NCBI GenBank assembly: GCA_963733035.1
Contig: CAVTBU010000005.1
Coordinates: 1,504,001-1,568,000, forward strand
Length of the DNA stretch: 64,000 nt
Origin: Pirellulales bacterium
GTDB taxonomy: Bacteria > Planctomycetota > Planctomycetia > Pirellulales > PALSA-1355
Direction of reading: 5' to 3'
Below the pieces are notes generated by a model, which saw only the letters and a list, made by a program, of their open reading frames with translations, had not been told where the DNA came from and made no database searches. Made by a program: the position numbers and the translations under genes. Below are positions 8,601-33,574 of this stretch, one piece after another. How positions within the stretch are numbered: position 1 is the first letter of the stretch; each line of letters starts with the position of its first letter.

Positions 8601-11600
8601 GTGCTCCACTGGGTAATTAAGTTGGACGGGCTGGGCAGCCCGTCGTCCGACACCGAACCGCCTAGCGCGATGGCCACGCCCGCCTGTCCGCTAACATCCG
8701 AGCCTGCACTCACCGTGGGCGGCTGGTTGGTAGCGATTCCCGGTGGGAAATCTCCCGCGTAAAGGGCAGTCACTTCGCTGGGATCGAGTGCCCGATTGGC
8801 AATCAGGACGTCGTCAATCCGGCCCCGCATGCCACGGCTGCCGGTGGGATCGGCTCCGATTCCCAACCCGAGGTTATTGGCATTGATCGTGAACACGGCC
8901 GCCTTTGACGCTTCCAGTTGGCCGTTGATGTACATGCGAATCGTGGTGCCGTCGTACGTGGCCACGACGTGCATCCAGGTGGTGCCATTGGTCGGATAAG
9001 TAGAATTCGAATCCAAGCGGAATGAATTGCCCGAGCTGGCCTGGTTGAAGCGTACGAATACCGTTCCCGAGTTACTCAGCGACAACTCATAACCGTTCAC
9101 GTTTCCGGTCGACTTTTGCACCACCGATTGGGTTCCGGTCGTGTAGGGCGCGATCCAGGCGGCGATGGTGATGTTTTGAGTAACATTGAGACTTGATGAG
9201 TTGGGCACCAAAGTCGACTGACTTGCGGTTCCCATAATCAGGCCATTGCCGTTTTGTCCGGCACCGAAAGAGGCCCCTTGTTGCAGGGTGCCGTCATTGC
9301 CTTTGCCGGACGAATCATGGGCCGTTGAACCCGAAGCTTCGTTAAAATGCCAGAATCCCATGATGCCACTGGACGCCAGCACGGCATTGATAGTGATCGT
9401 ATTGGGGCTTGGGTCGAGGTTCACTCCGCCATTGGCGGACCCGCCGTCGTCTTGAACCTGAAATGTAAAGCTGGCATAGTTCGACCCCTGCGCGTCGGCC
9501 GCCGGCGTAAACTGCAACTTGCCCGCCGCAATATCAGCCGCGGAGACGAACTGCCCGATAGAGACGGCCGCGCCGTTGTATGTCAGGGCACCCGCGCCCG
9601 GCAGACTGGCAATTCGCACCGCTTGCAATGCGTTGGCCGGGGAATCACCAGGATCGCTGAAACCAAAATCGACAACCTTCAAAGTGTACGCGACCCCGCT
9701 GATCGTCGTGATCGTGTTGTCGCTGCCGGACGGTGCGTCGTTCACCGCAGTCACATTGACGGTAATGGTGTTCGGCGTCGGATCGAGGTCGCTGCCACCG
9801 TTGGCCGTGCCGCCGTTATCCTGCACTTGAAAGGTGAGGCTCGTGTAACTCGAACCGTTGGCATTGGCTGCGGGAGCAAACTTGAGCTTGCCGGCTGTGA
9901 TGTCGGCCACCGCAATGAACTGCCCTGCAGAGACTGCCACACCGTTGTCACTCAGCGACCCAGCCGCGGGCAGCGTGGTGATCTTCACCGCCACCAGACT
10001 GCCCGCTGGCGAGTCATTGGGGTCGCTGAAGCCGAAGTCGGCTGCGGAGAATGTATACGCCGTGTCCTCCAGCGTGGTGATGATCTTGTTCGTCCCAGAC
10101 GGCGGATCGTTTACCGCCGTGACGTTGACGGTGATGGTGTTCGGCGTCGGATCGAGGTCAGTACCCCCGTTGGCCGTGCCGCCGTTGTCCTGCACCTGGA
10201 ACGTGAAGCTCGTGTAACTCGAACCATTGGCGTTGGCTGCCGGAGCAAACTTGAGCTTGCCGGCCGTGATGTCGGTTGCGCTGATGAATTGTCCTGCCGT
10301 AACCGCCGCACCACCATTGGTGAGCGAACCGGCCGCGGGTAGGCTCGAGATTTTGACCGCCAAGAGTGCATTGGCCGGCGAGTCATTAGGATCGCTGACG
10401 CCGAAGTCGGCCGCCGAGAACGTGTAGCCCGTGTCCTCCAGCGTGGTGATGGTCTTGTTTGTGCCAGACGGCGGATCGTTTACTGCCGTGACGTTGACGG
10501 TGATCGTGTTCGGCGTGGGATCGAGATCCACGCCGCCATTGGCCGTGCCACCGTTATCCTGCACCTGGAACGTGAAGCTCGTGTAACTCGTCCCGTTGGC
10601 GTTGGCTGCCGGAGCAAACTTGAGCTTGCCGGCCGTGATGTCCGTCGCGCTGATGAATTGTCCAGTGGTGACCGCCACGCCATTGTTGCTGAGCGCCCGG
10701 AAATGGGCAGCGTCGTGATCTTTACCACAAATAGGCTATTGGCTGGAGAATCAATCGCGTCACTGAAGCCAAAGTCAGCCGCAGAAAATGTGTAGGTCGT
10801 GTCTTCCAGCGTGGTGATGATCTTGTTTGCGCCAGACGGCGGATCGTTTACTGCCGTGACGTTGACGGTGATCGTGTTCGGCGTGGGATCGAGATCGATG
10901 CCACCATTGGCTGTGCCGCCGTTATCCTGCACCTGGAACGTGAAGCTGGCGTAGCTCGTGCCACTAGCGTTAGTGGCTGGGGCAAAGACAAGCTTCCCGG
11001 CCGTGATGTCTGTCACGCTGATGAATTGACCAATGGTGACCGCCAAACCGTTGTCCGCCAAGGTGCCCGCGCCGGGAAGGCTGGCAATACGCACTGCCTG
11101 TAACGTGTTCGCGGGAGAGTCGTTTGAATCGCTGAAGCCAAAATCGGCTGTCGAGAACGTGTAGGCCGTGTCTTCTAGCGTGGTGATCGTCTTGTCGCTT
11201 CCGGATGGCGAATCGTTGACCGAGGTGACGTTGATGGTGATCGTATTCGGGGTGGGATCGAGATCGACGCCGCCATTGAGCGTGCCGCCATTGTCCTGCA
11301 CTTGGAACATGAAGCTCGTATAGTTCGTACCGCTGGCATTGGCTGCGGGAGTGAATTTCAGCTTGCCCGTGGTGATATCGGCGAGGGCAATGAACTGGCC
11401 GACGGTGACGGCGACGCCGTTATCGGTCAGTGCGCCGGCAGTGGGGAGCGTTGCGATCTTAACGGCGAACAGACTATTAGCCGGGGAGTCGCTGGGATCG
11501 CTAAAACCGAAGTCGGCTGCGGAGAACGTGTAAGCCGTATCCTCCATCGCGGTGATGGTCTTGTCGCCACCAGACGGCGGGTCGTTCACCGCCGTGACGT

Positions 11601-14600
11601 TGACCGTGATCGTATTCGGCGTGGGATCGAGATCGACGCCGCCGTTGGCAGTGCCGCCGTTATCCTGCACCTGGAACGTGAAGCTGGTGTAACTCGTCCC
11701 GTTGGCGTTGGCAGCGGGAGTGAACTTCAGCTTGCCGGCCGTGATGTCGGCCACAGCGATGAATTGCCCGGCGGTGACTGCCACGCCGTTGTCGGTAAGC
11801 GCCCGGCAGTCGGGAGCGTCGTGATCTTCACCGCCAGCAGGCTGTTCGCGGGCGAGTCGTTGGGATCGCTGAAGCCGAAGTCGGCCACGGAGAACGTGTA
11901 GGCCGTGTCTTCCAGCGTGGTGATCGTCTTGTCGGTTCCGGACGGCGCGATCGTTCACCGCCGTGACGTTGACGGTGATCGTGTTGGGTGTGGGATCGAG
12001 ATCGACGCCGCCATTGGCCGTGCCGCCGTTATCCTGCACCTGGAACGTGAAGCTGGCATAGCCTCCGCCGCTGGCGTTGGCGGCGGGCGTGAAGTCAAGC
12101 TTGCCGGCGGTGATGTCGGCCACGGTGATGAATTGGCCGGCGGTGACGCCAACCCGTTATCGGTCAGCGCGCCGGCCGCGGGGAGCGTCGTGATCTTAAC
12201 CGCGAACAGGCTATTGGCCGGGGAGTCATTGGGATCGCTGAAACCGAAGTCGGCCGCGGAAAACGTGTAAGCCGTATCTTCCAACGTGGTGATGGTCTTG
12301 TCGCCACCAACCGGCGGGTCGTTCACCGCCGTGACGTTGACCGTGATCGTATTGGGTGTGGGATCGAGATCCACGCCGCCGTTGGCAGTCCACCGTTATC
12401 CTGCACCTGGAACGTGAAGCTCGTGTAACTCGTCCCGTTGGCGTTCGTAGCGGGAGTGAATTTCAGCTTCCCGGACGTGATGTCTGCCAGAACGACGAAT
12501 TGTCCAGCAGTGACTGCCACGCCATTGTCGGTCAAGCTGCCCGCGCCGGGGAGGCTGGCGATACGCACCGCCTGCAATGTGTTCGCGGGGGAATCATTGG
12601 AATCGTTGAAGCCAAAATCGGCCGTCGAGAACGTGTAGGCCGTGTCCTCGAGCGTGGTGATCGTCTTGTCGGTTCCGGACGGCGCATCGTTGACCGAGGT
12701 GACGTTGATGGTGATCGTGTTCGGGGTGGGGTCGAGATCCACGCCGCCGTTGGCCGTGCCGCCGTCGTCCTGCACCTGGAACATGAAGCTGGAATAGCTC
12801 GCGCCGTTGGCGTTCGGGACGGGAGTGAACTTGAGTTTGCCGGCGGTGATGTCGGCCACGCTGATGAATTGGCCGACGGTCACGGCGACCCCATTGTCGC
12901 TGAGCGTTCCAGCCGCTGGGAGCGTCGAAATCATGACCGCCATCAGCGAGTTGGCTGGCGAGTCATTGGGATCACTAAAACCGAAGTCGGCCGCGGAAAA
13001 CGTGTAGGCCGTGTCTTCCAAAGTGGTAATGGTCTTATCCGCGCCCGCCGGGGCATGGTTGAAACCCGTCACGTTGAACGTGATCGTATTGGGGGTTGGA
13101 TCAAGATCGACGCCGCCGTTCGCTGTGCCACCGTTGTCCTGTACCTGGAATGTGAAACTGGCGTAGCCAGCGCCGGTAGCGCCGGCGGCCGGGGTGAACT
13201 TGAGCTTGCCGGCCGTGATGTCGGTCACCGTGATGAACTGCCCGGCGGTGATCGCTACGCCATTGTCAGTCAGCACCCCGGCAATCGGGAGCGTCATGAT
13301 TTTAACCGCCAACAAACTGTTGGTTGGTGAGTCATTGGGGTCGCCGAAACCGAAGTCAGCCGCCGCGAACGTGTAGACCGTGTCTTGCAGTGTGCTTACC
13401 GTCTTGCTCGTGCCAACGGGCGGGTCGTTGACGGCGGTGACGTTGAACGTGATCGTATTGGGTGTGGGATCACGAAAGGCTATTGGCGGGGAAATCGTTG
13501 GCGTCACTGAAGCCAAAGTCGGCCGCGGAGAACGTGAAGGCCGTGTCTTCCAAGGTGGCGATGGTCTTGTCCGTGCCGGACGGCGAATCGTTGACCGAGG
13601 TGATGTTGATCGTGATCGTGTTGGGGTGGGTCGAGATCGACGCCGCCGTTGGCCGTCCCACCGTCGTCCTGCACCTGGAACGTGAAGCTGGCGTAACCTC
13701 CACCGTTGGCATTGGCGGCGGGCGTGAACTTGAGCTTGCCGCTCGTGATGTCAGCCACCGAGATGAACTGCCCGGCGGTGACTGCTACGCCATTATCGGT
13801 CAGTGCCCCGGCCGCGGGCAGCGTCGTGATCTTTACTGCAAACAGACTGTTGGCAGGGGAGTCGCTCGGGTCGCTAAAGCCGAAGTCAGCTGCGGAGAAA
13901 GTGTAGGCCGTATCTTCCAGCGTGGTGATGGTCCTATCCGCGCCGGCCGGCGAATCATTGACCGCAGTGACGTTGATCGTGATCGTTTTAGGAGTTGGAT
14001 CAAGATCGATGCCACCGTCGACCGTACCGCCGTTATCCTGCACTTGGAACGTGAAGCTCGTGTAGCTCGTGCCACTGGCGTTAGTGGCGGGTGTAAACAC
14101 AAGCTTCCCGGCAGTAATGTCTGTTACGCTGATGAATTGTCCGGCAGCGACGGCTGTGCCGTTGTCGCTGAGCGTCCCAGTCCCCGGTAGACTCGAAATC
14201 TTGACGGCCAACAAACCGTTGGCTGGCGAGTCATTGGAATCGCTGAAGCCGAAGTCCGCCGCGGAGAATGTGTAGGCCGTGTCTTCCAAACGTGGCGATG
14301 GTCTTGTTCGTTCCGGATGGCGGATCATTGACCGCGGTAACGTTGATATTGACGATTGCGGAATTGGAGTTGGCGGAGTTATCGTTTGCCTGGTAGGAGA
14401 AGGAGTCGGGTCCGGAGTAGTTGGAGTTGGGGGTGTAGGTGAAGGAGCCGTCGGAGCCGAAGGTGAGCGAGCCGTGGGCCGGTCCGCTGACGAGCGCGGC
14501 GGTCAGCAGGTCGCCATCGGCGTCGGTGTCGTTGGCCAGCACGCCGGGGGCGGCCACCGTGAGCGGCGTGTCCTCGCTGGTCGAGTAGCTGTCGCCAGTG

Positions 14601-16600
14601 GCCACCGGCGGCGTATTTCCGCTGGCGGGCGTGAGCTGGAAGGAGACCTCCGGATCGCCGAACAGCGTAATCGTGAAGTTCAGCCAGCGGTAGGTGCCCA
14701 CCGTGCCGACACGTATCAGGTTATGTTGCTTCGAGTACTCTTCCGCCTCTCCCAAGTGCAGGTAACCCAGGTTAAAAATCGCATTCCAAAAATCCTTGGC
14801 GTAGTAGTGGCTGTACCCGGGACTGGTTCCTGACACATACCAACCCTCCCGGGTATTGGCCACCATGGCAAACGCGCCATATTGCGACACTACCTGGGCT
14901 TCGGCCACGCTCAAGTCGGTCAGATCGAATCCCCCCGCATCGCAGCCCTGCGAGTACATCAGGTAGGGGAACGCGTTGGTCAACGCCTGCACGTCGGCCG
15001 GGGTCAGCTTGGAATCAATCGTGGTACCCGAGTGCCCCAAGGATTCCACGATCGCCGGACTGCTGTTCAGGTAGCTGATCAGCTGGCTGGCCGTCCAGGT
15101 AGACGAAGACGTGTCATAGAGCTCCAGCAGCGATGCCTGCCAGTTGGCCGGCAGCACGGTGTCGCGAATGTTCATGCCCGAATAACTGCCATAGGTCGTG
15201 GAGTCGATGATGCCTCCCAGGAACAGTCCCTCGGTCGGATTGGGAGGGGGCGTGGTCTCATAGAGCAGGGTCTTGGCCACGAAGTTGGCGGCTTCCGTGG
15301 CGTTGCTGGCCGGCGCGCGTCCCACATAGACATCGGCCGTCAGGTCGATATCACCTCCTCCCACGCCATCGGTGGACTCACCCCACAAACTGTTCCCGTT
15401 GCCGTTCCAGGTGCCATCCAGGCAGCCATAATACATGTCGGTGGCCAGCGCCGTTTCGGACAGCGACCCGGCAGTGGCGTAAACTCCGCGGACCGGCACC
15501 ACTTCCGAGTCCCCGCCCAGTAGCACCCACTCGGTGTTGTGGTTGAGGTACATGTCGCGAATGAAGTCGCGGATCTTGTCGGGGTTGTCGTGGGTCTCGC
15601 TGCCGCTGTAATTGGCGTAGATGTAATCGGTCGTGAAGATGGCGCCGGTCAGCCCCCGGGACAGCTTCTCGTTCAGCAGCGGCTGGAAGCTGCTGGCCAG
15701 GCTGCTGCTGGTGATGATCACGTACTGGTAGTCGGGTGTTCCGGCCAGCGGAGAGGCGATCTGTTGGCTGGCTTGCGCCGACGCCACCGCATCGTAGCTG
15801 GCCAGCGCTTGGGGGTTGTCCACCAGGGCCGCCACACGGGCTCGGTCGTCCGCGTTGTTGCGGACTTGCAGGGCGCTGCCGGCGGGCCGCTGCTCGAGAT
15901 GCAGCGTGACCATGAGATCCTGGTGGTACGTCAGGCTGCCACTGCTGGCCTGGTACTCCACGGGGAACACCTCGAGCATGCCCAGGCTGTAGCCGTTCTG
16001 GACGCTGTTGGTGAATTCCACCGGACCCTGGGCGGGAAAGTCGCTCCCGCTGTAGACCGTCGTGGCCGCCGGATCGCTGGCGTCCTCCGGCGGCGAGGCC
16101 GCCAGCAGTACGTTCTGGGCCAGCAGGGTTCCAGCGTCCCCGTAGCTCACGCTCACCGAGGAAATCTCCAGCCCCGGAGGCAACAGCACCGTCGAGCTGC
16201 GCATCGGTAACAACGGCATCCCAGGAGATGTCAGCGACTCCTCGCCAGACAAGGATACCACCACCCCCAAGCCCTGTTGAGTAACCTGCGGCAGACCGTC
16301 AAAGTGAAATTGAAAGACCGAGGTTTGGTCGGTCAGCGCTGCCAGAGTGCTGCTCAAAAGCAGCCGCGCACTGGGTGAAAGGTCACCGTATAGAGCCGGA
16401 CTCTCGTCCAAAACCTGACTGCTCAACGGCTGTGAGATCGATAACAGCTCACGCCGCTCTAGGGACTCAAAACGAAGGCGACGAGACCGCAGCGCTCGGC
16501 TAAGGATGCCAGCATGGCCGACAGCAGTTGTCCTGGGATCGCTGGCCCGCGACAACTGACCGCGTGGGCCGTCGATCCATCGCCCAAATGACGGGAACAT
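5642..16600 (-). CDS. giant secreted modular protein A (about 3650 aa reconstructed): LEPRxLL leader, C25 propeptide and gingipain-like peptidase, Ig-like domain, about 14 cadherin-like repeats, 4 LamG-like and 3 PKD-like modules; frameshifted in this sequence
   Basis: Track ORFs 14231-16789, 13504-14328, 13470-13712, 12323-13516, 11955-12374, 10480-12123 and 5642-10678 join into one repeat protein across small indels at about 14289, 13625, 12390, 12150, 11950, 11805 and 10697, plus a deletion at about 13470. ATG 16600 follows GAGG. Motifs [38 protein letters not shown]. Confidence 0.88.
5895..10129. repeat. 4235-bp direct repeat, copy 1 (LamG/PKD block plus two cadherin-like units); partner 26828-31062
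   Basis: Offset of 20933 bp at both ends (gaagtgtcgatactc and gacgttgac); near-identical with scattered substitutions. Confidence 0.95.
6608..8730. repeat. 921-bp tandem repeat (about 2.3 units, PKD+LamG) within protein A
   Basis: Identical translated segments offset by 921 nt, e.g. track ORFs 7289/8210 and 6961/7882. Confidence 0.95.
9390..14345. repeat. array of about 369-bp (123-aa) cadherin-like repeats: 13 full units and one internally deleted unit
   Basis: Recurrent [33 protein letters not shown]...[28 protein letters not shown]; units diverge at synonymous sites. Confidence 0.92.
14343..16277. repeat. 1935-bp inverted repeat, left arm (C25 peptidase plus Ig-like block); partner 21087-23021
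   Basis: Reverse complement matches 21087-23021 from ACAGGGCTTGGGGGTG to AATATCAA with only a handful of substitutions. Confidence 0.95.
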
Positions 16601-17220
16601 GACAGATTCCTCGCAAAAACGACCCCCATTGAAAAGAAGGCTGCGAGTCCCGCTACATCTGCTGTTGCGCCAAGTCAGCGAATGATGCGGTGAAGAGAAT
16701 TGCGGGCTCGGAACTGGAAAGTCGCCCGGGTCCGGTTGCATCCGACGCATGAGCGATGCGTCTGTCCCTCGGATGTCTCCTCTAAGCAAAGCCTACGTCG
16801 AATATATCGATTCGGCGTGCGAGGTGTGTGGTTCATCGCGTGAGTGGCGCTGATTTTCAACAGTAGGTGGTACGGACATATTGATTGGGGAAAGATTAAC
16901 GCGTCTTTTTTTGTGGGTGCAGCCGAAGCGGAGAAGCGGCTGAAAGATAAGAGGTACGTTCGGGTGATGAACTAGAATCGCGCGAAGATCCAGAGTCGTG
17001 AGTTCGAGGGGGATGGTCGTGCTCGCGCCTACGCGGTCGTCTGATTGAATACGGTCCGCACGCGTTCAATACCCGCAAGGCCAATCACTTCTCTCACAGA
17101 CAGTCTCAGATGTCTAACAAAACCACTCGGCGTTTCGTTTCACCGACGTGGCCTGCTCCCCGAAAACTGGTCCATGTGGTATGAGAGATCCTAACGCCCT
17201 GTTGGGCAAGGAGACTCTCG

Positions 17221-17499
17221 ATGAAAGGCAAGAAGCACAAGCCGGAGCAGATTATTCGGAAGCTGCGTGAAGCGGACGCGATGCTGTCGGCGGACAAGAC
17301 GATTGGCCAGGTGTGCCAGGCTCTGGAGATCAGCGAGCAGACGTACCATCGGTGGCGGAACCAGTACGGCGGGATGAAGGCCGAGGAGGCCAAGCGGCTG
17401 AAGGAGCTGGAAGGCGAGAACAAGCGGCTGAAGAAGCTGCTGGCCGAGGCCGAGCTCGACAAGGCGATCTTGAAGGAAGCCTTGGAGGGAAACTACTGA
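17221..17499 (+). CDS. IS3-family transposase OrfA (HTH)
   Basis: MKGKKHKPEQIIRKLREAD...ISEQTYHRWRNQYGG...RLKELEGENKRLKKLLAE. Confidence 0.95.
   Translation: MKGKKHKPEQIIRKLREADAMLSADKTIGQVCQALEISEQTYHRWRNQYGGMKAEEAKRLKELEGENKRLKKLLAEAELDKAILKEALEGNY
17487..17493 (+). other. programmed -1 ribosomal frameshift heptamer G GGA AAC
   Basis: X XXY YYZ motif in the orfA frame, one codon before the orfA stop; the -1 frame continues into orfB (GKLLSPTRRR). Confidence 0.8.
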
Positions 17500-18416
17500 G
17501 CCCGACGCGGCGGCGGGCGGCGGTTCGCCATGTTCAGGATCGCTGCCGTGTATCCGAGCGTCGGGCGTGCAGAGCATTGGGCGTGGCACGAAGCACACAA
17601 CGTTATTGTGCGCGGCAAGACACTGCCGGCGAGCAGCGTCTGGTGGCGTGCATGCACGAGCTGGTGTGTGAGTATCCGCGTTACGGTTACCGCTTCATCT
17701 GGGCCAAGCTGCGTCAGCGAGGATGGCACGTGAACGTGAAGAAGATCTATCGCTTGTGGCGACGCGAGGGCTTCAAGGTGCCGAGAAAGACCCATAAAAA
17801 GCGGCGTTTGGGCCACAGCGGCAACAGTTGCGTGCGGCGCCGCGCGGAGCATCCGGATCACGTGTGGACGTGGGACTTCATCCACGATCGGACGATGACA
17901 GGACAACCGTTGAAGTGGCTTGCGATCACCGACGAATACACACGCGAGTGCTTGGCCTTGGAGGTCGATCGTGGCATTACGGCTGATCGCGTGGTCGACG
18001 TGCTGACGAGTCTGTTCCTGATGCGTGGGGTGCCGCGGCACATCCGCAGCGATAACGGTCCGGAGTTCATTGCCCAGGCGATCCGTCGTCACGGCGAACG
18101 AGCAGGATTGGAGATGCTGTATATCGAACCAGCCAGTCCCTGGGAGAACGGCTACGCCGAGTCGTTCTTCAGCCGGCTGCGCGATGAACTGTTGAACTGC
18201 GAGGAGTTCGCCAACCTAGCTGAAGCGCGATGGTTCGCGCGGCGGCGATTGCAGGAGCACAACCACGAGCGGCCGCACAGCAGTCTCGGCTACCAGACCC
18301 CGGCGTCGTTCGCCGCCGCGTGTGCTGCTTCCGCTGCGGCTGCGCCTCCGCTCCAGCAGCACACGCGAAAACAAGAAGAAGTCACGTTACCCGTTCCCCA
18401 ACCGATACTCTCATAG
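17487..18416 (+). CDS. IS3-family transposase OrfB (rve integrase core), expressed by -1 frameshift
   Basis: YPRYGYR, VWTWDFIHD, ITDEYTRE, IRSDNGPEF, PWENGYAESFFSRLRDE, HNHERPHSSLGYQTP. Confidence 0.95.
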   Translation, partial: GKLLSPTRRRAAVRHVQDRCRVSERRACRALGVARSTQRYCARQDTAGEQRLVACMHELVCEYPRYGYRFIWAKLRQRGWHVNVKKIYRLWRREGFKVPRKTHKKRRLGHSGNSCVRRRAEHPDHVWTWDFIHDRTMTGQPLKWLAITDEYTRECLALEVDRGITADRVVDVLTSLFLMRGVPRHIRSDNGPEFIAQAIRRHGERAGLEMLYIEPASPWENGYAESFFSRLRDELLNCEEFANLAEARWFARRRLQEHNHERPHSSLGYQTPASFAAACAASAAAAPPLQQHTRKQEEVTLPVPQPILS

Positions 18417-19369
18417 CCCGTGGACCAAAAATCAGGGGCAGGTCAGACGGACACCCGACTATCCTTGACGCGAACTTGGACTGCCAATGCGGGATCGCGG
18501 TGTCGATCAAACCCGGCCCGTTTGCCAGTCGAGGTTTTGCATGCCACGCCACGCATGACAGACATCCGGCCAGAGAATCAATCGCGTTTTTGCTCGGCGT
18601 GCTCGCCAGGCGACCGGAATTCGCCTCGGCGTCTCACTGATAACGGGGAAACAAATCCCGCGCAGCCCATCAAGTCGATAGTGGGCGTGAATTTCCCAGC
18701 GGCAGCTGACGCGAGATCGGCGATGCCGACAGCGACTCGACAGCGTCATAGGGCCAGAAAGCGGACCGTAACCAGGTTGACTGCCAGCGCTGCATTCGGC
18801 ATTCAAGGACTGATGGAGCCTGATCTAGCCGGGAATGACGTGCTGGGCAGGGGGCATCTAACGCACACAGGACATGTGGCCAAACTTCGTCCCGAGCAAG
18901 AGCCAAGGAAAAACTGTTCCGAATTTGAAGGAGAATGCCCCGCAAATCCGTAGTTGGCGCGCGACTTTCCCCCCAAACGGCTCGTCGCCCGCAAATCTCC
19001 ATCACCTGAATGAACGGGGAGTCTGGCGATATTGGGATACGTGGGTCGTTTCGTGAAGTGAAAGCAAGTCTCTTGTTTTGGGACGTTCCGTAGGGCGCGA
19101 GGAGACAGGCCAAGCGCGACACGCTGCCCCCCCTATTGCCTGTATTTCGTCATAAGTTATTTGTGAAAATAATGATACGATTACTGTCTGAGCCAGCCGG
19201 CTACCACTCTCGGTCGGTTTTCAATCGCTGGTCTGTATCCGTACCCCGCGATTTTTCGAAAAATTCTGGGCCTGCTCGGAAACTTTGTCAGGATTGCCTG
19301 AGCCGGGGCCTATAGTCAGCAATGAAACAAAAAGGCTCGTCCTTTGGCATGCTCTAAGGAGATTCTACG

Positions 19370-20317
19370 ATGAAACGCATTTCGGTTTTCTGTGCAATGG
19401 CGTTTCTGACTCTGACGCCAACGGCGTTTGCAGGAATCAGCCCGCACGACGACATCAAGTTGAGTGGCAGCCAATCGGGGACGAACGGTGGACCGTTTAC
19501 GTTGTACTACGATCTAGATCACACGAGGTCCCAAGGTCCTGGCAACTACGTCAATCCGGCCGGTTTCTCTTCAGTCGACCAATTTCAAACCTTCTGCGTG
19601 GAGTACAACGAGGAGTTTTCTCCTGGGACAGTCTATGACGTCAAGTCAATCACGGATGGGTCTCTTCAGACGGGTAGAGACTTAACCGGCTATGCTGCTT
19701 GGGTCTACAAGACCTACCTTGACAACATTGCCAACATAACGACGAACTCTGAGAAGGCGATGTTCCAGGCGGCGATTTGGGGTGGCATGGTAAATCCTTC
19801 GGCTGTGGCCGGAACCATCGCCGGCGAGATCGGTAGCCACACAACTTCGGAATGGGCTAATGCTCCCGCCACTTGGTACAGTGGTGCCATTTCTCCTCCG
19901 CTTGACGGGTCAAATAATCTCGATCTAAACGCGACGGCCTTCTCGGATGTGTTAGGTGACGCGACGGTAGACATTAGCTACGACACATTCCTTGGCCAGA
20001 TGTCAACTTGGTCGGCTGGCGCGTACGCCAATAATGACGATAGCAACGCAGCGTTGCTCTTTACGAATGGCTACCACATCCTCAATCTTTCGAACACGAC
20101 TAACACCGCCAAAGTCCAAGATATGATCGTATCGCCGGCAAACACTCTGTCGGTGCCGGAGCCGGCCAGCATTGTTGTGTGGTCTCTCTTGGCCGGTGGA
20201 GCAGCTGGTGTGGGCGTCTCCCGCAGGCGTCGAAACAAATTGCCGGCCGCGGGTCGTTGGAGCGAAGGCGACCGCAATGCGATCTTCGCGATAATCCAGC
20301 GTGGTTCCGACAACTAG
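19370..20317 (+). CDS. PEP-CTERM sorting domain protein with extended cytoplasmic tail
   Basis: AAGGAG RBS, signal peptide, FQTFCVEYNE motif, VPEPASIVVWSLLAGG + TM + RRRR, then about 26 extra residues. Confidence 0.93.
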   Translation: MKRISVFCAMAFLTLTPTAFAGISPHDDIKLSGSQSGTNGGPFTLYYDLDHTRSQGPGNYVNPAGFSSVDQFQTFCVEYNEEFSPGTVYDVKSITDGSLQTGRDLTGYAAWVYKTYLDNIANITTNSEKAMFQAAIWGGMVNPSAVAGTIAGEIGSHTTSEWANAPATWYSGAISPPLDGSNNLDLNATAFSDVLGDATVDISYDTFLGQMSTWSAGAYANNDDSNAALLFTNGYHILNLSNTTNTAKVQDMIVSPANTLSVPEPASIVVWSLLAGGAAGVGVSRRRRNKLPAAGRWSEGDRNAIFAIIQRGSDN

Positions 20318-20371
20318 CAAGTGAACCTGCCGAGGGCCGTTTGAGCTTCGGCGGGCGCATCAACGACGATC

Positions 20372-20406
20372 AAGGGTTGCCGTGAATTCGGCAACCCTTT
20401 TTTCTT
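20372..20406 (+). terminator. Rho-independent terminator after the PEP-CTERM gene
   Basis: AAGGGTTGCCG-tgaatt-CGGCAACCCTT hairpin followed by a T run. Confidence 0.85.
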
Positions 20407-20847
20407 TGCGGGGGGGTGCTTGCTTCCTCGGTTCTGGCTGGCGGCCTCGCGCTCGCGACTCAAGAATCGTCATTGAGTGTTTGTCGCACGCTCGTCAGCA
20501 TGCATTGGGGGGCACGATGCGCCTCTTGATGACGAGGTGCACACATTCGACTTGCCGAACGTTGCGGTACGTTCGGTGCTCTCGATGAATTGAGTGAAAT
20601 AGGTCGATTTTTCGGCTTGCGAAGCATTCAGCGACTCACTACGCTGCCTGTGGCCGAGAGGCAGGGGCTCTAGTGCGCATAGTTCGAGGCGTCATTGGGC
20701 AGTCGCCCACAGGTTTTTTTCGCCGCTTCATACCACCGGCAGGATGTCGACTCGAGTCGTGTCAATTGACACGCCGCTCGTGTCCAGCAAGATGGATCCT
20801 GCCGCGTGACCAATGGCACCTGAACTAAGCGAGAGTTGGTGGCGCCC

Positions 20848-23800
20848 ATGCTCAAGCTGTTGCTTCTCTTCGGTTCGCGAAAAAAGTGGACTCATTCCAA
20901 TCGCGGCTCGAAGCTTCGCGGAAAAGCTGTCCGATGTGTCGTTGAGCCGTTGGAATTGCGCAGTGTTTTATCGGTGGCGCCGGTACAACCGGTGGAGTTC
21001 GAAGTCTCCGACAATTACCTCTCAAACCCAGCTTCCCAAGTTCTGCAGCTCACCTTCGACTTTAGCCAGAACGCGACACTGCAGTCACAGGGCTTGGGGG
21101 TGACGGTATCCTTGTCTGGCGAGGAGTCGCTGACATCTCCTGGGATGCCGTTGTTACCGATGCGCAGCTCGACGGTGCTGTTGCCTCCGGGGCTGGAGAT
21201 TTCCTCGGTGAGCGTGAGCTACGGGGACGCTGGAACCCTGCTGGCCCAGAACGTACTGCTGGCGGCCTCGCCGCCGGAGGACGCCAGCGATCCGGCGGCC
21301 ACGACGGTCTACAGCGGGAGCGACTTTCCCGCCCAGGGTCCGGTGGAATTCACCAACAGCGTCCAGAACGGCTACAGCCTGGGCATGCTCGAGGTGTTCC
21401 CCGTGGAGTACCAGGCCAGCAGTGGCAGCCTGACGTACCACCAGGATCTCATGGTCACGCTGCATCTCGAGCAGCGGCCCGCCGGCAGCGCCCTGCAAGT
21501 CCGCAACAACGCGGACGACCGAGCCCGTGTGGCGGCCCTGGTGGACAACCCCCAAGCGCTGGCCAGCTACGATGCGGTGGCGTCAGCGCAAGCCAGCCAA
21601 CAGATCGCCTCTCCGCTGGCCGGAACACCCGACTACCAGTACGTGATCATCACCAGCAGCAGCCTGGCCAGCAGCTTCCAGCCGCTGCTGAACGAGAAGC
21701 TGTCCCGGGGGCTGACCGGCGCCATCTTCACGACCGATTACATCTACGCCAATTACAGCGGCAGCGAGACCCACGACAACCCCGACAAGATCCGCGACTT
21801 CATTCGCGACATGTACCTCAACCACAACACCGAGTGGGTGCTACTGGGCGGGGACTCGGAAGTGGTGCCGGTCCGCGGAGTTTACGCCACTGCCGGGTCG
21901 CTGTCCGAAACGGCGCTGGCCACCGACATGTATTATGGCTGCCTGGATGGCACCTGGAACGGCAACGGGAACAGTTTGTGGGGTGAGTCCACCGATGGCG
22001 TGGGAGGAGGTGATATCGACCTGACGGCCGATGTCTATGTGGGACGCGCGCCGGCCAGCAACGCCACGGAAGCCGCCAACTTCGTGGCCAAGACCCTGCT
22101 CTATGAGACCACGCCCCCTCCCAATCCGACCGAGGGACTGTTCCTGGGAGGCATCATCGACTCCACGACCTATGGCAGTTATTCGGGCATGAACATTCGC
22201 GACACCGTGCTGCCGGCCAACTGGCAGGCATCGCTGCTGGAGCTCTATGACACGTCTTCGTCTACCTGGACGGCCAGCCAGCTGATCAGCTACCTGAACA
22301 GCAGTCCGGCGATCGTGGAATCCTTGGGGCACTCGGGTACCACGATTGATTCCAAGCTGACCCCGGCCGACGTGCAGGCGTTGACCAACGCGTTCCCCTA
22401 CCTGATGTACTCGCAGGGCTGCGATGCGGGGGGATTCGATCTGACCGACTTGAGCGTGGCCGAAGCCCAGGTAGTGTCGCAATATGGCGCGTTTGCCATG
22501 GTGGCCAATACCCGGGAGGGTTGGTATGTGTCAGGAACCAGTCCCGGGTACAGCCACTACTACGCCAAGGATTTTTGGAATGCGATTTTTAACCTGGGTT
22601 ACCTGCACTTGGGAGAGGCGGAAGAGTACTCGAAGCAACATAACCTGATACGTGTCGGCACGGTGGGCACCTACCGCTGGCTGAACTTCACGATTACGCT
22701 GTTCGGCGATCCGGAGGTCTCCTTCCAGCTCACGCCCGCCAGCGGAAATACGCCGCCGGTGGCCACTGGCGACAGCTACTCGACCAGCGAGGACACGCCG
22801 CTCACGGTGGCCGCCCCCGGCGTGCTGGCCAACGACACCGACGCCGATGGCGACCTGCTGACCGCCCTGCTCGTCAGCGGACCGGCCCACGGCTCGCTCA
22901 CCTTCGGCTCCGACGGCTCCTTCACCTACACCCCCAACCCCAACTACTCCGGACCCGACTCCTTCTCCTACCAGGCAAACGACTCCTCCGCCAACTCCAA
23001 TTCCGCAATCGTCAATATCAATGTTGTGCCGAATCCGGGCAGCGTGGTCGCCAGACACATCTTCTACAACGATTCGAGCTACGACGGAAACAACCCGTCC
23101 GTCAACAGCGGCGATGACGCCGCGATTGATTCGGCCAAGATGGCTTATCTGCCCGGCACTGGAGTGTCCACATTTGCCAACATTACCAGCTATGTCAGCG
23201 GCATCAACGGCATCATGATCGACTTGGCCGGCGGGGGTAATCATGCAGCCATCAGCTCGGGCGACTTTATCTTCAAGGTCGGCGCCAACAACTCCCCCGA
23301 AACATGGGCGCTGGCCCCGGATCCTGTCATCGTATCGGTGCGGCCCGGCGCCGGTGTCGGAGGCAGCGACCGAATTGAGATAACCTGGGCCAACGGCGCA
23401 ATCATTAACACTTGGCTTGAAGTGACGATCAAAGGCAATGACTCATTAGGGGGCTTCGATATCAATTCCGGCTTGTCGACCTCGGATGTTTTCTACTTTG
23501 GCAACCGCATCGGTGACGCCGGATTTGACTCGGACGACGTCGCGGTGACCAATGCCGCTGATGAAATAGCAGCCCGTGTTGCCTACGACTTCCAGCAAAT
23601 AACGGTCACGAACCCGTACGACTTTGACCGAAATCAGGTCGTCAATGCGAGCGACCAAATCATCGCTCGTGTAAACTCCGGGACTCTGGCCATGATTGAG
23701 CTGGGAGTCGGCGTTGCGACACCCCAAGCGATGCTGCCAACAGAGACCGACGCCATTCGCTCCGCGCTTGGCATGCTCCGATGGCCAGTTCGCATCATCG

Positions 23801-24012
23801 GCGAGACGGCTGACCAGCGCCAGAATGACTGGCAACTGCCTGAAAATCCGTTACTCGCGGCATCAACTCACGATCTGGCATTGATGCAAGTGATGATCGA
23901 GTCAATCGATCAGGAACCGCTGGCGTCCGATACTTCGACTGTGCCGTTCTCGCTGCTAGAGTATCCTGCCGATGGCGGCCCCATTCGAGTTTCGGGCGGT
24001 CGCAGGCCTTAG
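20848..24012 (+). CDS. secreted protein B: LEPRxLL leader, C25 propeptide and gingipain-like cysteine peptidase, Ig-like domain, planctomycete C-terminal domain with dockerin-like loop
   Basis: [54 protein letters not shown] (His codon 22330), QGCD (Cys codon 22420), TLFGDP; VARHIFYNDSSYDG...YDFDRNQVVNASDQIIAR. Confidence 0.92.
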   Translation: MLKLLLLFGSRKKWTHSNRGSKLRGKAVRCVVEPLELRSVLSVAPVQPVEFEVSDNYLSNPASQVLQLTFDFSQNATLQSQGLGVTVSLSGEESLTSPGMPLLPMRSSTVLLPPGLEISSVSVSYGDAGTLLAQNVLLAASPPEDASDPAATTVYSGSDFPAQGPVEFTNSVQNGYSLGMLEVFPVEYQASSGSLTYHQDLMVTLHLEQRPAGSALQVRNNADDRARVAALVDNPQALASYDAVASAQASQQIASPLAGTPDYQYVIITSSSLASSFQPLLNEKLSRGLTGAIFTTDYIYANYSGSETHDNPDKIRDFIRDMYLNHNTEWVLLGGDSEVVPVRGVYATAGSLSETALATDMYYGCLDGTWNGNGNSLWGESTDGVGGGDIDLTADVYVGRAPASNATEAANFVAKTLLYETTPPPNPTEGLFLGGIIDSTTYGSYSGMNIRDTVLPANWQASLLELYDTSSSTWTASQLISYLNSSPAIVESLGHSGTTIDSKLTPADVQALTNAFPYLMYSQGCDAGGFDLTDLSVAEAQVVSQYGAFAMVANTREGWYVSGTSPGYSHYYAKDFWNAIFNLGYLHLGEAEEYSKQHNLIRVGTVGTYRWLNFTITLFGDPEVSFQLTPASGNTPPVATGDSYSTSEDTPLTVAAPGVLANDTDADGDLLTALLVSGPAHGSLTFGSDGSFTYTPNPNYSGPDSFSYQANDSSANSNSAIVNINVVPNPGSVVARHIFYNDSSYDGNNPSVNSGDDAAIDSAKMAYLPGTGVSTFANITSYVSGINGIMIDLAGGGNHAAISSGDFIFKVGANNSPETWALAPDPVIVSVRPGAGVGGSDRIEITWANGAIINTWLEVTIKGNDSLGGFDINSGLSTSDVFYFGNRIGDAGFDSDDVAVTNAADEIAARVAYDFQQITVTNPYDFDRNQVVNASDQIIARVNSGTLAMIELGVGVATPQAMLPTETDAIRSALGMLRWPVRIIGETADQRQNDWQLPENPLLAASTHDLALMQVMIESIDQEPLASDTSTVPFSLLEYPADGGPIRVSGGRRP
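21087..23021. repeat. 1935-bp inverted repeat, right arm; partner 14343-16277
   Basis: Same translation as the protein A C25 block except a few residues at the edges. Confidence 0.95.
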
Positions 24013-25299: not shown

Positions 25300-26403
25300 T
25301 TACCGACGAGCAGACGCGTTAAGGTCGTACACCTCAACGTCCGCCAGGACCGGGCGATGGTCCGAGCCGATATCCGGGCCAACCCAGCATCGTACTGCTC
25401 GAGAGCCAACGTCTGTCAGCACATGATCGATGCGGATGCCGTAGGCTCCCGCAAGTAGCGGCTCATACTTCGTGTAGCCAAAACCCAGGCCGACTGCGGA
25501 AAACGCATCGGGCCGGTCCGACCAGTATTCCCGAAAGATCCCGCTGTCGACGGGCATATTGAAATCGCCCGCGACAATGAGCGGCCCTTCGAAGCCACGC
25601 AACCAATTCGAGACGGTTTTGGACTCCAGCCGCCGGATGACGAGCTGGGATGCTAAATGGCCGCTCCGGGCTGAGTTGATCACCGTGTGCCGATCGAGAA
25701 CCTCGGCCAGTCCCTCCCGAGGCGACATCAAGTGCACACAACAAACGCCAACTGGGCCACATGGTGTCGACAATGTGGCATGAATCCCGTTAACGGCAGG
25801 CCAAGGGCTAAACGGGTAAGTGCGATGCGAGATCGTGACAGATTCGAGCGGATAACGAGACGCAACGATTAGTTGCCCGGCTCGCTCCACATGCCAGCCG
25901 GCTGGCCAAGGGATTTTTAAGTCGCCGCTACACTCCTGCAACGTGACAACTTCGGCATCTACCTGCTTCACCAACGAGACAAGCCGCTCGCCATCGACTT
26001 GATCGCCCTCCACGTTGTATGTGAGTAGTCGAAGCGTGGGCGCATTGTCCACGGCCAACTTTCCAAAGGGCAAGCAAAAGCCCATGACCGGCCCCACCAG
26101 CAATACTAGGCTGGCCAGTAACGGCCAAAGCGACCGTCGCCACAGAATTGCCGTCGCCGGCAGCAACACGGCGAGAGGCAGCGCAAGAAGCATTCGCGGC
26201 CCAAAGAGAATCACCGTTGCCAACCACCAGCGATCACTAGCGAACCGCAGCAATAGCCACATGGCAATTACGAGGATCAAGTAGATCCAAGATAGTGAAG
26301 CAATAGTGTAAAGCAATATCGACTTTTGTGTCGCTGTTCCGTTCAACTCTGGTTGGACTCGATGTCGACTTTCGGCGATTCCATTGTCAGGCTCGAGTTT
26401 CAC
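25300..26403 (-). CDS. membrane-anchored endonuclease/exonuclease/phosphatase (EEP) family protein
   Basis: N-terminal TM helices; LRLLTYNV, VTLQE, VHL.SP, LIVAGDFN, RIDHVL and GSDHRPV motifs. Confidence 0.92.
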   Translation of the reverse strand: MKLEPDNGIAESRHRVQPELNGTATQKSILLYTIASLSWIYLILVIAMWLLLRFASDRWWLATVILFGPRMLLALPLAVLLPATAILWRRSLWPLLASLVLLVGPVMGFCLPFGKLAVDNAPTLRLLTYNVEGDQVDGERLVSLVKQVDAEVVTLQECSGDLKIPWPAGWHVERAGQLIVASRYPLESVTISHRTYPFSPWPAVNGIHATLSTPCGPVGVCCVHLMSPREGLAEVLDRHTVINSARSGHLASQLVIRRLESKTVSNWLRGFEGPLIVAGDFNMPVDSGIFREYWSDRPDAFSAVGLGFGYTKYEPLLAGAYGIRIDHVLTDVGSRAVRCWVGPDIGSDHRPVLADVEVYDLNASARR

Positions 26404-26588: not shown

Positions 26589-29500
26589 TCACCAACTCTT
26601 GGGCGGAACTTTTGCGCCGGGCGGGATGGAAGAGAGTATCGAGCCAAACGGATCCAACAATTCACTGATGGCGACATCGACCTCCGCCCGATTGTCAGTT
26701 GAGGTCACCATGCCCCCCTCGTTTAGTGCTCGGTGCTGCGGGTGCCGATTGCAGTTGGACGAGCGCGTTGGCGTGGAGCGATTGAGCCGTTGGACTGGGG
26801 GAATTGAGCGGCACGGTAGATTCATCCGAAGTGTCGATACTCATCGTACTGGCCGTCAGTGCGCTGACGATCAGGTTGCCTTGGAAAAGCTCAGCGACTT
26901 CATTAGGTTGCAAAGCCCGATTGGCGATGAGCACGTCGTCAACGCGTCCTTGCATCGAGCGTCCGCCGTCTTCCTCCGCGCCGATGGACAGCCCGAGGTC
27001 ATTTGTGCCGATCGTAAAATTGGCCGCCTTGGACGCTTCCAGCTGGCCGTTGATATACATGCGAATCGTGGTCCCGTCATACGTCGCAACAACATGCATC
27101 CAGGTCGTGCCGTTCGTCGGGTACTTGGACGTCGAATCCACGCGAAACGCATTGCCTGCACTATCTTGATTGAAGCGAACGAACACGGTGCCTGAATTGC
27201 TCAGCGCTAGTTCATAGCCGTCTACGCTTTGAGTGATTGATTTGGTCACGAGCGATTGCGTAGCCTGTGCCTCGGGCGAAATCCAGGCCGCAATCGTGAT
27301 GCTGCCGGTGATATCCAGGCTAGCCGCGTCCGGGACCACCACGTGCGGGTGGACCGTTCCTATGGGTTGCGGCAACGCCACCGAACCGGCCAGCACCAGT
27401 CCCGTACCATTCTGACCGGCACCAAAAGCGGCGCCGTCTTGCAGGCTGCCGTCATTGCCGCTGCCGGAAGAATCATGGACCGTCGAACCGGATCCCTCGT
27501 TGAACTGCCAGAATCCCACGAGGCCGGTGGAAGTACTGGCTGGCGATACGGTGACGGTTACGTCGTCGCTGGCGCTGAGTTCGCCGTCCGAGGCGGTCAG
27601 CCGCAACACGTACACGCCCTCGGCACTGAACGTCGCCGAGGTGGATGCGGCCGCGGCGTTGCCAAAGCTGACGCTGCCTGGCCCGCTGACGGTGCTCCAC
27701 TGGGTCGTCAGGTTGGACGGGCTGGGCAGTCCGTCGTCCGACACCGAACCGCCTAGCGCGATGGCCACGCCCGCCTGTCCGCTAACATCCGAGCCCGCAC
27801 TCACCGTGGGCGGCTGGTTGGCCGGAGCCGCGGGATTGAAATTGCCCACGTACACCTGCGCGATCTCGGTCGCCGAGAGCGCCCGGTCCGTGATCAGCAC
27901 TTCATCCAGTTGGCCCTGCATCGAGGTGGTGCCACCATTGCCGGAGCCGAAAGTGAGCGCCAGATTGTTCGTGCCAATCGCAAATGTGGCTGCCTTGCTG
28001 GCCTGCTGCTGGCCATTGATGTACAGCCGAATGGTCGAGCCATCGTAGGTGGCGGCCACGTGCAGCCAGGTGTTGCCGTTGGTCGGATAGCTTGACGTCG
28101 AATCAACGCGATACGTGTCACCTGAACTGGCCTGGTTGAAACGCACGAACACCGTGCCGCTGTTGCTCAGGCCCAGTTCAAAGCCATCGGTCGCGTTGCT
28201 GGCTGCTTTGCTGACGATGGTTTGCGTTCCATTGGCGCTGGGTTTGATCCATGCCGTGATCGTGATCGCATCGGCGATCTGCAATTGGGGAACGTCTGGC
28301 ACGACGTAGCTCTGTCCGGAGCCGTTGAGGTTGAGCCGGCCGTTACTGCTGACCGTGGCACCCCCTTGCAAGCTGCCCAGGTTGCCGATCTGGCTGGGGT
28401 ACGCCGCCCCGAAGCCCGGCAAAAAGTTCCAGAATCCCACGAGGCCAGTGGACTCGCTGGTTGGCGATACGGTGACGGTTACGTCGTCGCTGGCGCTGAG
28501 TTCGCCGTCCGAGGCGGTCAGCCGCAATACGTACACACCCTCGGCACTGAACGTCGCCGAGGTGGATGGGGCCGCGGCGTTGCCAAAGCTGACGCTGCCT
28601 GGCCCGCTAACCGTGCTCCACTGGGTAATTAAGTTGGACGGGCTGGGCAGCCCGTCGTCCGACACCGAACCGCCTAGCGCGATGGCCACGCCCGCCTGTC
28701 CGCTAACATCCGAGCCTGCACTCACCGTGGGCGGCTGGTTGGCCGGAGCCGCGGGATTGAAATTGCCCACGTACACCTGCGCGATCTCAGTCGCCGAGAG
28801 CGCCCGGTCCGTGATCAGCACTTCATCCAGTTGGCCCTGCATCGAGGTGGTGCCACCATTGCCGGAGCCGAAAGTGAGCGCCAGGTTGTTCGTGCCAATC
28901 GCAAATGTGGCTGCCTTGCTGGCCTGCTGCTGGCCATTGATGTACAGCCGAATGGTCGAGCCATCGTAGGTGGCGGCCACGTGCAGCCAGGTGTTGCCGT
29001 TGGTCGGATAGCTTGACGTCGAATCAACGCGATACGTGTCACCTGAACTGGCCTGGTTGAAACGCACGAACACCGTGCCGCTGTTGCTCAGGCCCAGTTC
29101 AAAGCCATCGGTCGCGTTGCTGGCTGCTTTGCTGACGATGGTTTGCGTTCCATTGGCGCTGGGTTTGATCCATGCCGTGATCGTGATCGCATCGGCGATC
29201 TGCAATTGGGGAACGTCTGGCACGACGTAGCTCTGTCCGGAGCCGTTGAGGTTGAGCCGGCCGTTACTGCTGACCGTGGCACCCCCTTGCAAGCTGCCCA
29301 GGTTGCCGATCTGGCTGGGGTACGCCGCCCCGAAGCCCGGCAAAAAGTTCCAGAATCCCACGAGGCCAGTGGAATCGCTGGTTGGCGATACGGTGACGGT
29401 TACGTCGTCGCTGGCGCTGAGTTCGCCGTCCGAGGCGGTCAGCCGCAATACGTACACACCCTCGGCACTGAACGTCGCCGAGGTGGATGGGGCCGCGGCG

Positions 29501-32500: not shown

Positions 32501-33574
32501 ATGTAGAACGGCTTGGCAATCGCGGGATCCAGCGCCGCGCCACCTTCGATCCCCACCTGCACGTAGCAGGTTTCCGGGGTCGCGCCGGTAGTAAATGTCC
32601 CCTCCTGAAGCTGAATACCTCGCCAGTTCGTCCCATTCCAACTCACTTCCTGCGTGGTGCCCCCGTTGCCAACAAGTCTCACGTAGCCATTCACGCCAGG
32701 ATTTGCCGTATCACCCTGCCCGCCGTACTCGAACATCGCCGATAGGCTATAGGTCGTGTTGGCCTCCAGCGTAATGGTTGAAGTCGAGGTGATGTGCTGA
32801 TCGCCGTTGGGCAGTGCAAACTTCAGCGAGTAGTTGCCGTCATAGATCTCGTTGTGCAGCCAGACACCCTGAAAGCGCAATGCGCCGGGCGCGGCGCGTA
32901 AAGTCCCAACCACTTGCCACCACACCGGCACCAGCTTCGAAACTGCCATTGGGTATGGTGATTGGGGTGGCATCGTCATAAGTAATCTTGTGCCCATTGA
33001 GGTCGAAGACAACATCCTTCGCGATAATCGCAAATGCCGTTCCGTCCGTGGTGACATCCGTTTGCAGCACATAGGTTGCTCCTGGCTGGTCCAGGTAGTA
33101 GGGCCCCGCTCCCCGGGCGTCCAACCAAGCTTGATCGATATCAATGATGCTTGTCGCAGCAACAACTGCAACTTGGTCCGATCCCGCATGGACAACCGGA
33201 GCCCCTTGGGAGTCAAGCGGTGCGGGGTCGCCTGACAAGAATTCCGGAGGCGGCAACTGAGATTGCTCGGCGGATGAAGTTGCGGCTTCGAGTGGCATCG
33301 TTGACAATAGATGCCTAGACTCAAGATGTTCCAATCGCAAGTTGGACGCTCTGAAGGCAGAACGTTTTGTCCTCTTGCCGCTCCAGATGCGAAACTGCTT
33401 CCTTGGCAAGGCAGGTTCTCCGACATCCTCGGGAGGCCTAAGTTCAACATCGGCTAAAGATGTGTCGCTTGCAGCAGTACGAAGACAAGAGGCAGACGGG
33501 CAGACTGGGATTAGAACGTATGCCAGGAAACAGAGCCGCAATGCGACGAACTTCTCAAACCCTAAACATAGCAT
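26589..33574 (-). CDS. giant secreted protein C (about 2330 aa reconstructed): LEPRxLL leader, carbohydrate-binding-like insert and right-handed beta-helix, 2 cadherin-like repeats, 4 LamG-like and 3 PKD-like modules; frameshifts at about 32896 and 26727
   Basis: ORF 32840-33574 (LRLEHLESRHLLS, YVLQTDVT..GTAFAI..KDVVFDLNGHKITY) joins the 26695 frame at about 32896. Beta-helix-like N-rich turns (IYGNTI, VHDNVI, IYDNTI, VYGNNV). Homology to the protein A tail continues in the 26589-26825 frame. Start codon uncertain. Confidence 0.85.
26828..31062. repeat. 4235-bp direct repeat, copy 2; partner 5895-10129 (contains the 921-bp tandem at 27541-29663)
   Basis: Near-identical sequence at offset 20933. 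Confidence 0.95.

Follow-up and report, generated by a model that had tools for sequence, protein, structure and literature searches.

In Campylobacter fetus, homologous recombination at the sap locus inverts DNA that carries expression signals, re-pairing 5' signals with 3' coding parts. The recombining arms of sap include the very 5' end of the open reading frame (ORF), one promoter serves several promoterless cassettes, and both orientations have been demonstrated. Here we describe a locus with a related layout in a 64,000-nt stretch of the genome of a Pirellulales bacterium (C5:1504001-1568000; this whole stretch is the window hereafter), where two divergently transcribed genes for predicted secreted C25 peptidases, genes A and B, carry a 1.9-kb inverted repeat inside their coding sequences that encloses both 5' ends. 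An earlier note on this DNA had interpreted the repeat as a candidate invertible switch for a surface protease. Our analysis instead favors, with a probability of roughly 0.7, a recent gene-conversion tract between head-to-head paralogous C25 genes, within a recombination-active and lineage-specific surface-protein locus that adjoins an exosortase/exopolysaccharide (EPS) operon.

According to one published account, the sap homologs exchange frequently and one of them is mainly transcribed (PMC3887049). The Pirellulales locus resembles sap in that surface-protein genes in opposite orientation share a conserved coding segment that brackets the expression signals. It differs from sap in that the arms begin only after 171 and 84 codons of the ORFs, only two partners are involved, and each partner has its own leader and probably its own promoter.

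While sap provides the likeness of layout, the closest mechanism appears to be concerted evolution of inverted duplicate genes of the tufA/tufB type. In Salmonella enterica, tufA and tufB likewise are near-identical, inverse coding repeats of kilobase size on one chromosome (12 differences in tuf and 10 here), and RecA-type gene conversion keeps the two copies alike, with associated inversion. Several features of such conversion are found at the Pirellulales locus, namely an abrupt, near-identical tract in diverged homologs, differences that are concentrated at the edges of that tract, and a recA gene in the genome (PF00154, 435.6 bits, C7:178104-178883). However, tufA and tufB are whole, functionally equivalent genes that are 762 kb apart, whereas the shared segment described here is an internal module of 646 codons whose copies are 4.8 kb apart, with different leaders and tails at its flanks and one partner broken downstream.

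Two further kinds of system invite comparison. Adhesin paralogs of the babA/babB type in Helicobacter pylori form chimeras by gene conversion, and they are similar in being surface-protein paralogs with shared and unique segments that swap modules by homologous recombination. They are, however, outer-membrane adhesins of a host-associated pathogen encoded at distant loci, whereas the genes described here are adjacent in a free-living soil planctomycete. Site-specific invertons and shufflons (e.g., Hin/Gin/Fim and hsdS) rely on short repeats, tens of bases in length, and on a dedicated recombinase encoded close by; as in those systems, inverted repeats in coding sequence at this locus could yield alternative in-frame proteins. 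The arms here are 1.9 kb long, and none of the 16 PF00589 and seven PF00239 matches in the genome falls in the window, the nearest PF00589 match being ~19 kb past the window end. Likewise, no tyrosine or serine recombinase was detected among the 41 window ORFs scanned against Pfam. The earlier note had seen no site-specific recombinase in the window, and the profile searches for PF00589 and PF00239 bear this out. A site-specific inverton was rejected on the basis of the missing recombinase gene in the window and the arm length of 1939 nt.

The inverted repeat and the genes that carry it

The genome assembly comprises 6,645,485 bases in 10 contigs (completeness 92%, contamination 2.9%), and the window lies 1.5 Mb inside a contig of 2.99 Mb. 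A repeat search of window positions 12000-26000 recovered one inverted pair, with arms of 1939 nt that are 99% complementary and are separated by a spacer of 4809 nt; no other inverted pair of at least 40 nt was found in that interval. The pair is the sole inverted pair of at least 150 nt within the window and, by BLAST, the second-longest self-match of the window. Exactly two copies of the 1.9-kb arm are present in the genome, both at this locus. The arms and the genes in which they are embedded are:

14339..16277, minus strand: inverted-repeat arm A, codons 172-817 of ORF A, encoding the N-terminal domain, Peptidase_C25 and the first Big_9/cadherin-like domain
21087..23025, plus strand: inverted-repeat arm B, codons 85-730 of ORF B, encoding the same domains as arm A
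14231..16789, minus strand: gene A head ORF, 852 codons from TTG, with leader, C25 peptidase, one cadherin-like domain and a frameshifted end
20836..24012, plus strand: gene B, 1058 codons from TTG with an ATG at 20848, with leader, C25 peptidase, one cadherin-like domain and a tail of 324 residues

When compared base by base, arms A and B differ by 10 mismatches and no gaps, corresponding to an identity of 99.5%, and similarity drops to random level at once outside both arm ends. A chance origin is impossible for a 1.9-kb match of this quality, and the inverted repeat is real and non-random. The mismatches are unevenly distributed: seven are at 14342-14497, one is at 15779 and two are at 16260/16261, such that nine of the 10 fall in the outermost 159 nt or the innermost 18 nt of the arm. 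In other words, the core of 1762 nt has a single mismatch while the edges have seven in 159 nt and two in 18 nt (post-hoc binomial P for edge clustering, 4e-9).

Both arms start at a third codon base (codon 171 in ORF A and 84 in ORF B) and end at a third codon base (codons 817 and 730), and the codon phase is identical in the two arms. Each arm encodes 646 residues, and the 10 nucleotide differences touch seven codons and result in four amino-acid substitutions. According to Pfam, the Big_9 domain ends at residue 816 in A and 729 in B, which places the outer arm end within one codon of a domain boundary. The earlier note had placed near-identical inverted copies at 14343-16277 and 21087-23021 and had claimed that their identity lies in a shared reading frame of two divergent genes. 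Both claims hold, the second on the evidence of the codon positions of the arm ends, and the true arms reach 4 nt further outward.

Genes A and B had been described as divergent and gingipain-like, which is borne out by matches of both ORFs to Peptidase_C25 over the full profile (E 1.8e-51 for ORF A and 3.7e-51 for ORF B; PF01364 scores of 176 and 175 bits against a cut-off of 23; profile positions 1-372 of 374 covered), followed in both by the Big_9/cadherin-like domain. GHS and QxC motifs are present in A, B and five homologs, the latter as QGC in A, B and P0002-P0005 and as QAC in P0006; these motifs may be the catalytic His/Cys dyad of C25. The probable start of gene A is an ATG at 16600, giving a form of 789 residues that corresponds to protein record P0001, and the probable start of gene B is the ATG at 20848. 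The leader of gene B contains VEPLELRSVLS, and gene A has a leader of its own that is distinct and follows the family pattern LExRxLLS. Both carry a motif that is characteristic of large secreted proteins in planctomycetes. Presumably these are leaders of the kind named 'LEPR-XLL', for which there is no NCBIfam match; no leader-motif family from NCBIfam was detected in A or B at E<=0.01. The tail of gene B had been called short and dockerin-like. Its 324 residues match no Pfam family at E<=1, and the dockerin assignment comes from motifs seen by eye and from the nearest Atlas clusters, which are planctomycete hypothetical proteins of which ~20% carry Dockerin_1 (a lead only).

The spacer (16278-21086) holds, in order, the leader of A, an IS3-family insertion sequence (IS), an unsupported ORF, a PEP-CTERM-like gene, a terminator-like hairpin and the leader of B, in agreement with the contents first described for it (both 5' ends, both leaders, an IS3 and a PEP-CTERM gene). 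Its features other than the leaders are:

17149..18445, plus strand: IS3-family insertion sequence, orfA 17221-17499 and orfB 17313-18416, ~550 nt upstream of the gene A start
19370..20317, plus strand: PEP-CTERM-type gene, with a signal peptide and a C-terminal VPEP, hydrophobic stretch and RRRR
20372..20399, plus strand: strong terminator-like hairpin of 11 pairs followed by a T run, separating gene B from the PEP-CTERM gene

The IS3 element matches transpos_IS3 at 229 bits against a cut-off of 160, has ends of the form TG...CA, and is bordered by GACG on both flanks. The genome contains three copies that are 99.9-100% identical, the other two being on contig C8. Because these copies are near-identical, the element appears to have been active recently. 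Rearrangement mediated by IS3 was rejected as a cause of the repeat, given the matching 4-nt flanks and the lack of a second copy nearby. The match of the PEP-CTERM-type gene to the NCBIfam PEP-CTERM model is weak (20 bits against a cut-off of 65), with ~30 residues after the basic cluster. A scan of the spacer for promoter consensus sequences, which are unreliable in this phylum, returned four sites where 1.8 were expected, none of which was convincingly placed before A or B.

Origin of the identity between genes A and B

Upstream of the arms, A and B are 29% identical over 69 amino acids (E 0.018), and both align in this region with homologs P0003-P0006, which are 49-53% identical. The pre-arm regions of both genes keep the pattern of the family, comprising a LExRxLLS leader and then an (L/F)xFxF strand before the arm. 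Because both regions fit this pattern together with P0003-P0006, genes A and B appear to share homology outside the tract as well, as diverged there as old paralogs would be. The closest entry in a collection of 5.8 billion proteins is a two-member cluster of A and B themselves, and the next match is 56% identical. Among the same 5.8 billion proteins there was no near-identical protein from another strain, including a recombinant of leader A, head and tail B.

Among species-representative genomes, the closest homolog is that of L015, a Pirellulales metagenome-assembled genome, which is 49% identical to B over 719 amino acids. The alignment extends from the leader through the first cadherin-like domain, beyond which the tails differ. 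Because L015 aligns with B over the head and the tails differ, a head with a variable tail is likely the normal build of the family. No inverted repeat of at least 100 nt was detected in L015. More generally, 73 loci that encode homologous C25 heads, each taken with flanks of up to 10 kb, contain tandem or direct repeats only and no inverted repeat of at least 250 nt at 80% identity or higher.

We propose that A and B, arranged head to head, are older paralogs that belong to a planctomycete family of secreted cysteine peptidases of the C25 type, and that in this family a LExRxLLS leader is followed by an N-terminal domain, the catalytic C25 domain, a single cadherin-like domain and a tail that varies. 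One or several recent ectopic gene conversions, mediated by homologous recombination of the RecA type, would then have copied 1.94 kb of one head onto the other. The converted tract would begin within the N-terminal domain and extend through the first cadherin-like domain, leaving leaders and tails unrelated. Ectopic gene conversion is suggested because an abrupt-ended tract of 99.5% identity lies on old paralogs and has a near-perfect core and more diverged edges. Mismatches clustered at the edges are expected where conversion tracts vary in their end points.

The distal tail of gene A and the tail of a third gene, gene C, exhibit a comparable relationship, although as direct rather than inverted copies:

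5725..10129, minus strand: distal tail of gene A, copy 1 of a 4.4-kb direct repeat, common to gene C
26657-31062, minus strand: copy 2 of the 4.4-kb direct repeat, tail of gene C
26695..33450, minus strand: gene C, an intact ORF of 2251 codons with a beta-helix-like head, two cadherin-like units and a LamG/PKD tail

Over 4407 aligned nucleotides the two tails are 98.6% identical, with 59 mismatches and three gaps, and the differences are concentrated near the 3' edge (5725-6000). Genes A and C have different C-termini owing to a 1-nt indel at 5793/26725. Because this tract has the same edge pattern as the head tract, the locus likely converts repeatedly, and the same process may have homogenized the 4.4 kb of the distal tail of gene A with gene C. 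Gene A would thus be a mosaic with its own leader, a B-like head, its own damaged cadherin array and a C-like tail.

At 95% identity or higher, no repeat in the genome is longer than this 4407-nt direct repeat. A crossover between its copies would delete or duplicate the intervening 21 kb, including the whole inverted-repeat unit. Each tail also contains three LamG+PKD units of 921 nt (6570-8730 and 27503-29663) that are 94-100% identical, and this likeness is a further layer of homogenization, within and between genes. As for the other end of gene C, its head has no Pfam match above the cut-off; the first ~200 codons of the ORF look unlike protein, and the true start is probably further in.

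Comparison with a genome of the same genus, G003, places this arrangement in context. At the syntenic EPS locus (G003:C6:215000-274999), an Exo_endo_phos gene is followed by a single giant gene of 2191 codons with a LExR-type leader, a beta-helix head, cadherin-like units and a LamG tail, and no C25 head was detected in the 60 kb around that locus. At the corresponding site the window has three genes that share modules, together with the IS3 element and the PEP-CTERM gene. Because G003 has one giant gene there that lacks a C25 head, the three-gene mosaic appears to be lineage-specific.

A search of 40 relatives with the 646-residue arm protein gave matches that, among those listed, cover only the cadherin-like part (query residues 525 and higher), and no ortholog of the A/B-type head was among them. 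A different, conserved C25 gene was identified by family search in 32 of the 40 relatives, with roughly 400-900 codons (mostly 520-630), such that the proposition that relatives lack C25 genes is wrong. This conserved gene is also present in the genome described here, outside the window, at C5:2291997-2293124 (a frame of 572 codons), and is distinct from the A/B type.

Several points weigh against gene conversion between old paralogs. We infer conversion as the cause, its dependence on RecA, and the ability of the segment to invert from the pattern in the sequence alone. Given that the listed matches in relatives include no A/B-type head, both of the supposedly old paralogs must have been acquired or have been lost elsewhere. 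The outer end of the arm is at a protein-domain boundary, which is not needed for a random conversion end point and which could reflect selection for a functional, exchangeable module. Moreover, the layout is that which a switch of promoters and leaders needs, in that the 5' ends are enclosed, the phase is the same, and the arms are long.

If conversion does account for the repeat, the locus would clearly illustrate modular concerted evolution among the giant genes for surface proteins in Planctomycetota, in which the head (N-terminal domain, protease and first cadherin-like domain) and the 4.4-kb tail are separately kept identical between neighboring genes. It would bear on how secreted C25 peptidases, which are poorly understood, gain new tails. 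It would also be of value for annotation, as such repeats break short-read assemblies and mimic switches.

Possible inversion of the spacer and rival origins of the repeat

Under gene conversion, the inverted orientation of the head tract still has a consequence, in that a crossover would flip the 4.8-kb spacer and swap the promoter-plus-leader modules in frame. The geometry proposed at the outset is sound: wherever in the arms a crossover fell, 16278-21086 would be inverted and each 5' end would be fused in frame with the opposite tail. Both frames would stay open because the arms share codon phase. Inversion is thus physically plausible, and it would be an occasional by-product of conversion rather than a dedicated switch. 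Because both genes are equipped with separate starts and leaders, and probably with separate promoters, and the hairpin sets gene B apart from the gene upstream, a flip would not by itself silence either gene, in contrast to the single-promoter sap system.

What a flip would exchange depends on the tails. The 'long cadherin/LamG stalk' attributed to gene A in the earlier note is not one open frame, as ORF A ends with a stop at 14231, 108 nt past the arm, and the stalk then runs on through five frame changes to 5642:

5642..14328, minus strand: broken continuation of gene A, ~13 cadherin-like units of 369 nt and then LamG/PKD repeats, in frames 0>1>0>2>1>0

Indels were called from a joint alignment of fourteen cadherin-like units of 369 nt from gene A and the two such units from gene C. 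This identified about seven frame-disrupting indels, comprising ~six single-base indels and one out-of-frame deletion of 208 nt. The first is an extra T near 14287, ~50 nt past the arm; the deletion is evident as a truncated cadherin-like unit of 161 nt at 13462-13622; and further single-base indels are in the units at 12355, 11988, 11619 (two, compensating) and 10513. The -1 indels of units 10513 and 11619 share one unit position (CCGG-GCGCT). Reading frames are open in the other genes of the window, among them the 2251-codon gene C and a TPR gene of 1481 codons. Some IS copies in the genome differ by single-base gaps. The indels in the array (10400-14330) may represent real decay or consensus errors in the repeat; the 208-nt deletion is not a defect of the consensus-error kind. 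An intact long form of gene A is absent from the assembly.

Among the rival explanations, a working RecA-dependent flip-flop of the sap type is unlikely. It would invert 16278-21086, swap the promoter-plus-leader modules between tails A and B, and thereby change which tail, or whether the sole intact tail B, is expressed or exported. The arms are well suited to this, being in the same codon phase, enclosing both 5' ends, forming an efficient recombination substrate of 1.9 kb of near-identical sequence, and having an outer end at a domain boundary. In addition, recA is present, the two 5' modules could be unequal owing to the IS3 element that lies ~550 nt upstream of gene A, and the tuf genes provide a precedent in which inversions accompany conversion. 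However, there is no second orientation on record; the separate start and leader of each gene and the hairpin before gene B point to two promoters, probably, rather than one; tail A is broken by about seven indels; and the layout is missing from all 73 homologous loci and from the syntenic locus of G003.

The specific proposal of the earlier note, a toggle between long and short displayed forms, is unsupported, given the broken tail A, the separate starts and leaders, and the occurrence of the layout in none of the 73 homologous loci. A long-versus-short exchange is incompatible with the broken tail, unless the indels arose in assembly. The layout is not a conserved design, because none of the 73 homologous loci carries an inverted repeat of at least 250 nt. 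Reads from one run with 23% of the sampled words and from two runs of the same study were compared over 10000-24500. The pieces of run X1, the run that holds this organism, are 79-1065 nt long (five of the eight listed are 151 nt) at a depth of ~2-5, and none crosses an arm, which such pieces are too short to span, or the frameshift sites; they say nothing either way about orientation or indels. Apparent joints in reads at 10000-13600 are cadherin repeats of other organisms with a likeness of 90-95%. Literature on phase variation by inversion in Planctomycetes yielded nothing on the subject by title or abstract.

On balance, a dedicated switch is unlikely. Also improbable is a reading in which the 4.8-kb segment flips in nature, unequal 5' modules switch the sole intact protease (head plus tail B) between states of expression or export, and the broken gene A is an archive kept fresh by conversion with B and C. 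The inequality would come from the module of A being ~550 nt from a freshly inserted IS3 and that of B being located after a terminator. Were a switch nonetheless to operate, a free-living planctomycete would possess a surface-protease switch driven by recombination next to its exosortase/EPS locus. Recombinase-independent phase variation of surface proteins would then reach beyond host-associated pathogens, to a soil bacterium that is free-living.

A fresh inverted segmental duplication is as doubtful as the flip-flop. It would have copied the 1.94-kb head segment once and inserted it in frame between an unrelated leader and tail, and it is consistent with the very sharp boundaries and very high identity of the arms; that no A/B-type head is among the matches listed in the 40 relatives also suggests a recent history of the head. 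Yet the fit of both pre-arm regions to the N-terminal pattern of the C25 family implies that a C25-type gene was already present at both sites, a chance landing in frame at both ends is unlikely, and the contrast between the edge (seven mismatches in 159 nt) and the core (one in 1762) points to more than one event.

The weakest alternative, an assembly artefact in which one real copy was duplicated or misjoined, is very improbable: single-base indels in the cadherin array by arm A and single-base gaps among IS copies make local consensus errors possible, but the arms have 10 fixed differences of which four change an amino acid, their flanks are different and in frame on all four sides with both ORFs sensible against homologs, the site is 1.5 Mb inside a 3-Mb contig, and the spacer is 4.8 kb of ordinary genes with no foldback.

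Surroundings of the locus

Between genes B and C is a gene whose ortholog is found at the syntenic locus of G003:

25300..26403, minus strand: Exo_endo_phos family gene

The part of the window from 34 to 64 kb encodes DUF3485/EpsI, a TPR protein of 1481 residues, an AAA_31 domain protein, Bac_transf, a DUF3473 deacetylase, an asparagine synthase, at least six glycosyltransferases, and genes that resemble those of the PEP-CTERM system. This content suggests a large EPS locus of the exosortase/PEP-CTERM type. An IS4/5-type transposase is inserted in the EPS locus at 45342-46163. On the opposite side, just past the end of gene A, two ORFs at 814-1449 and 3332-4063 match sigma-70 region 2 or region 4 and are similar to extracytoplasmic function (ECF) sigma factors.

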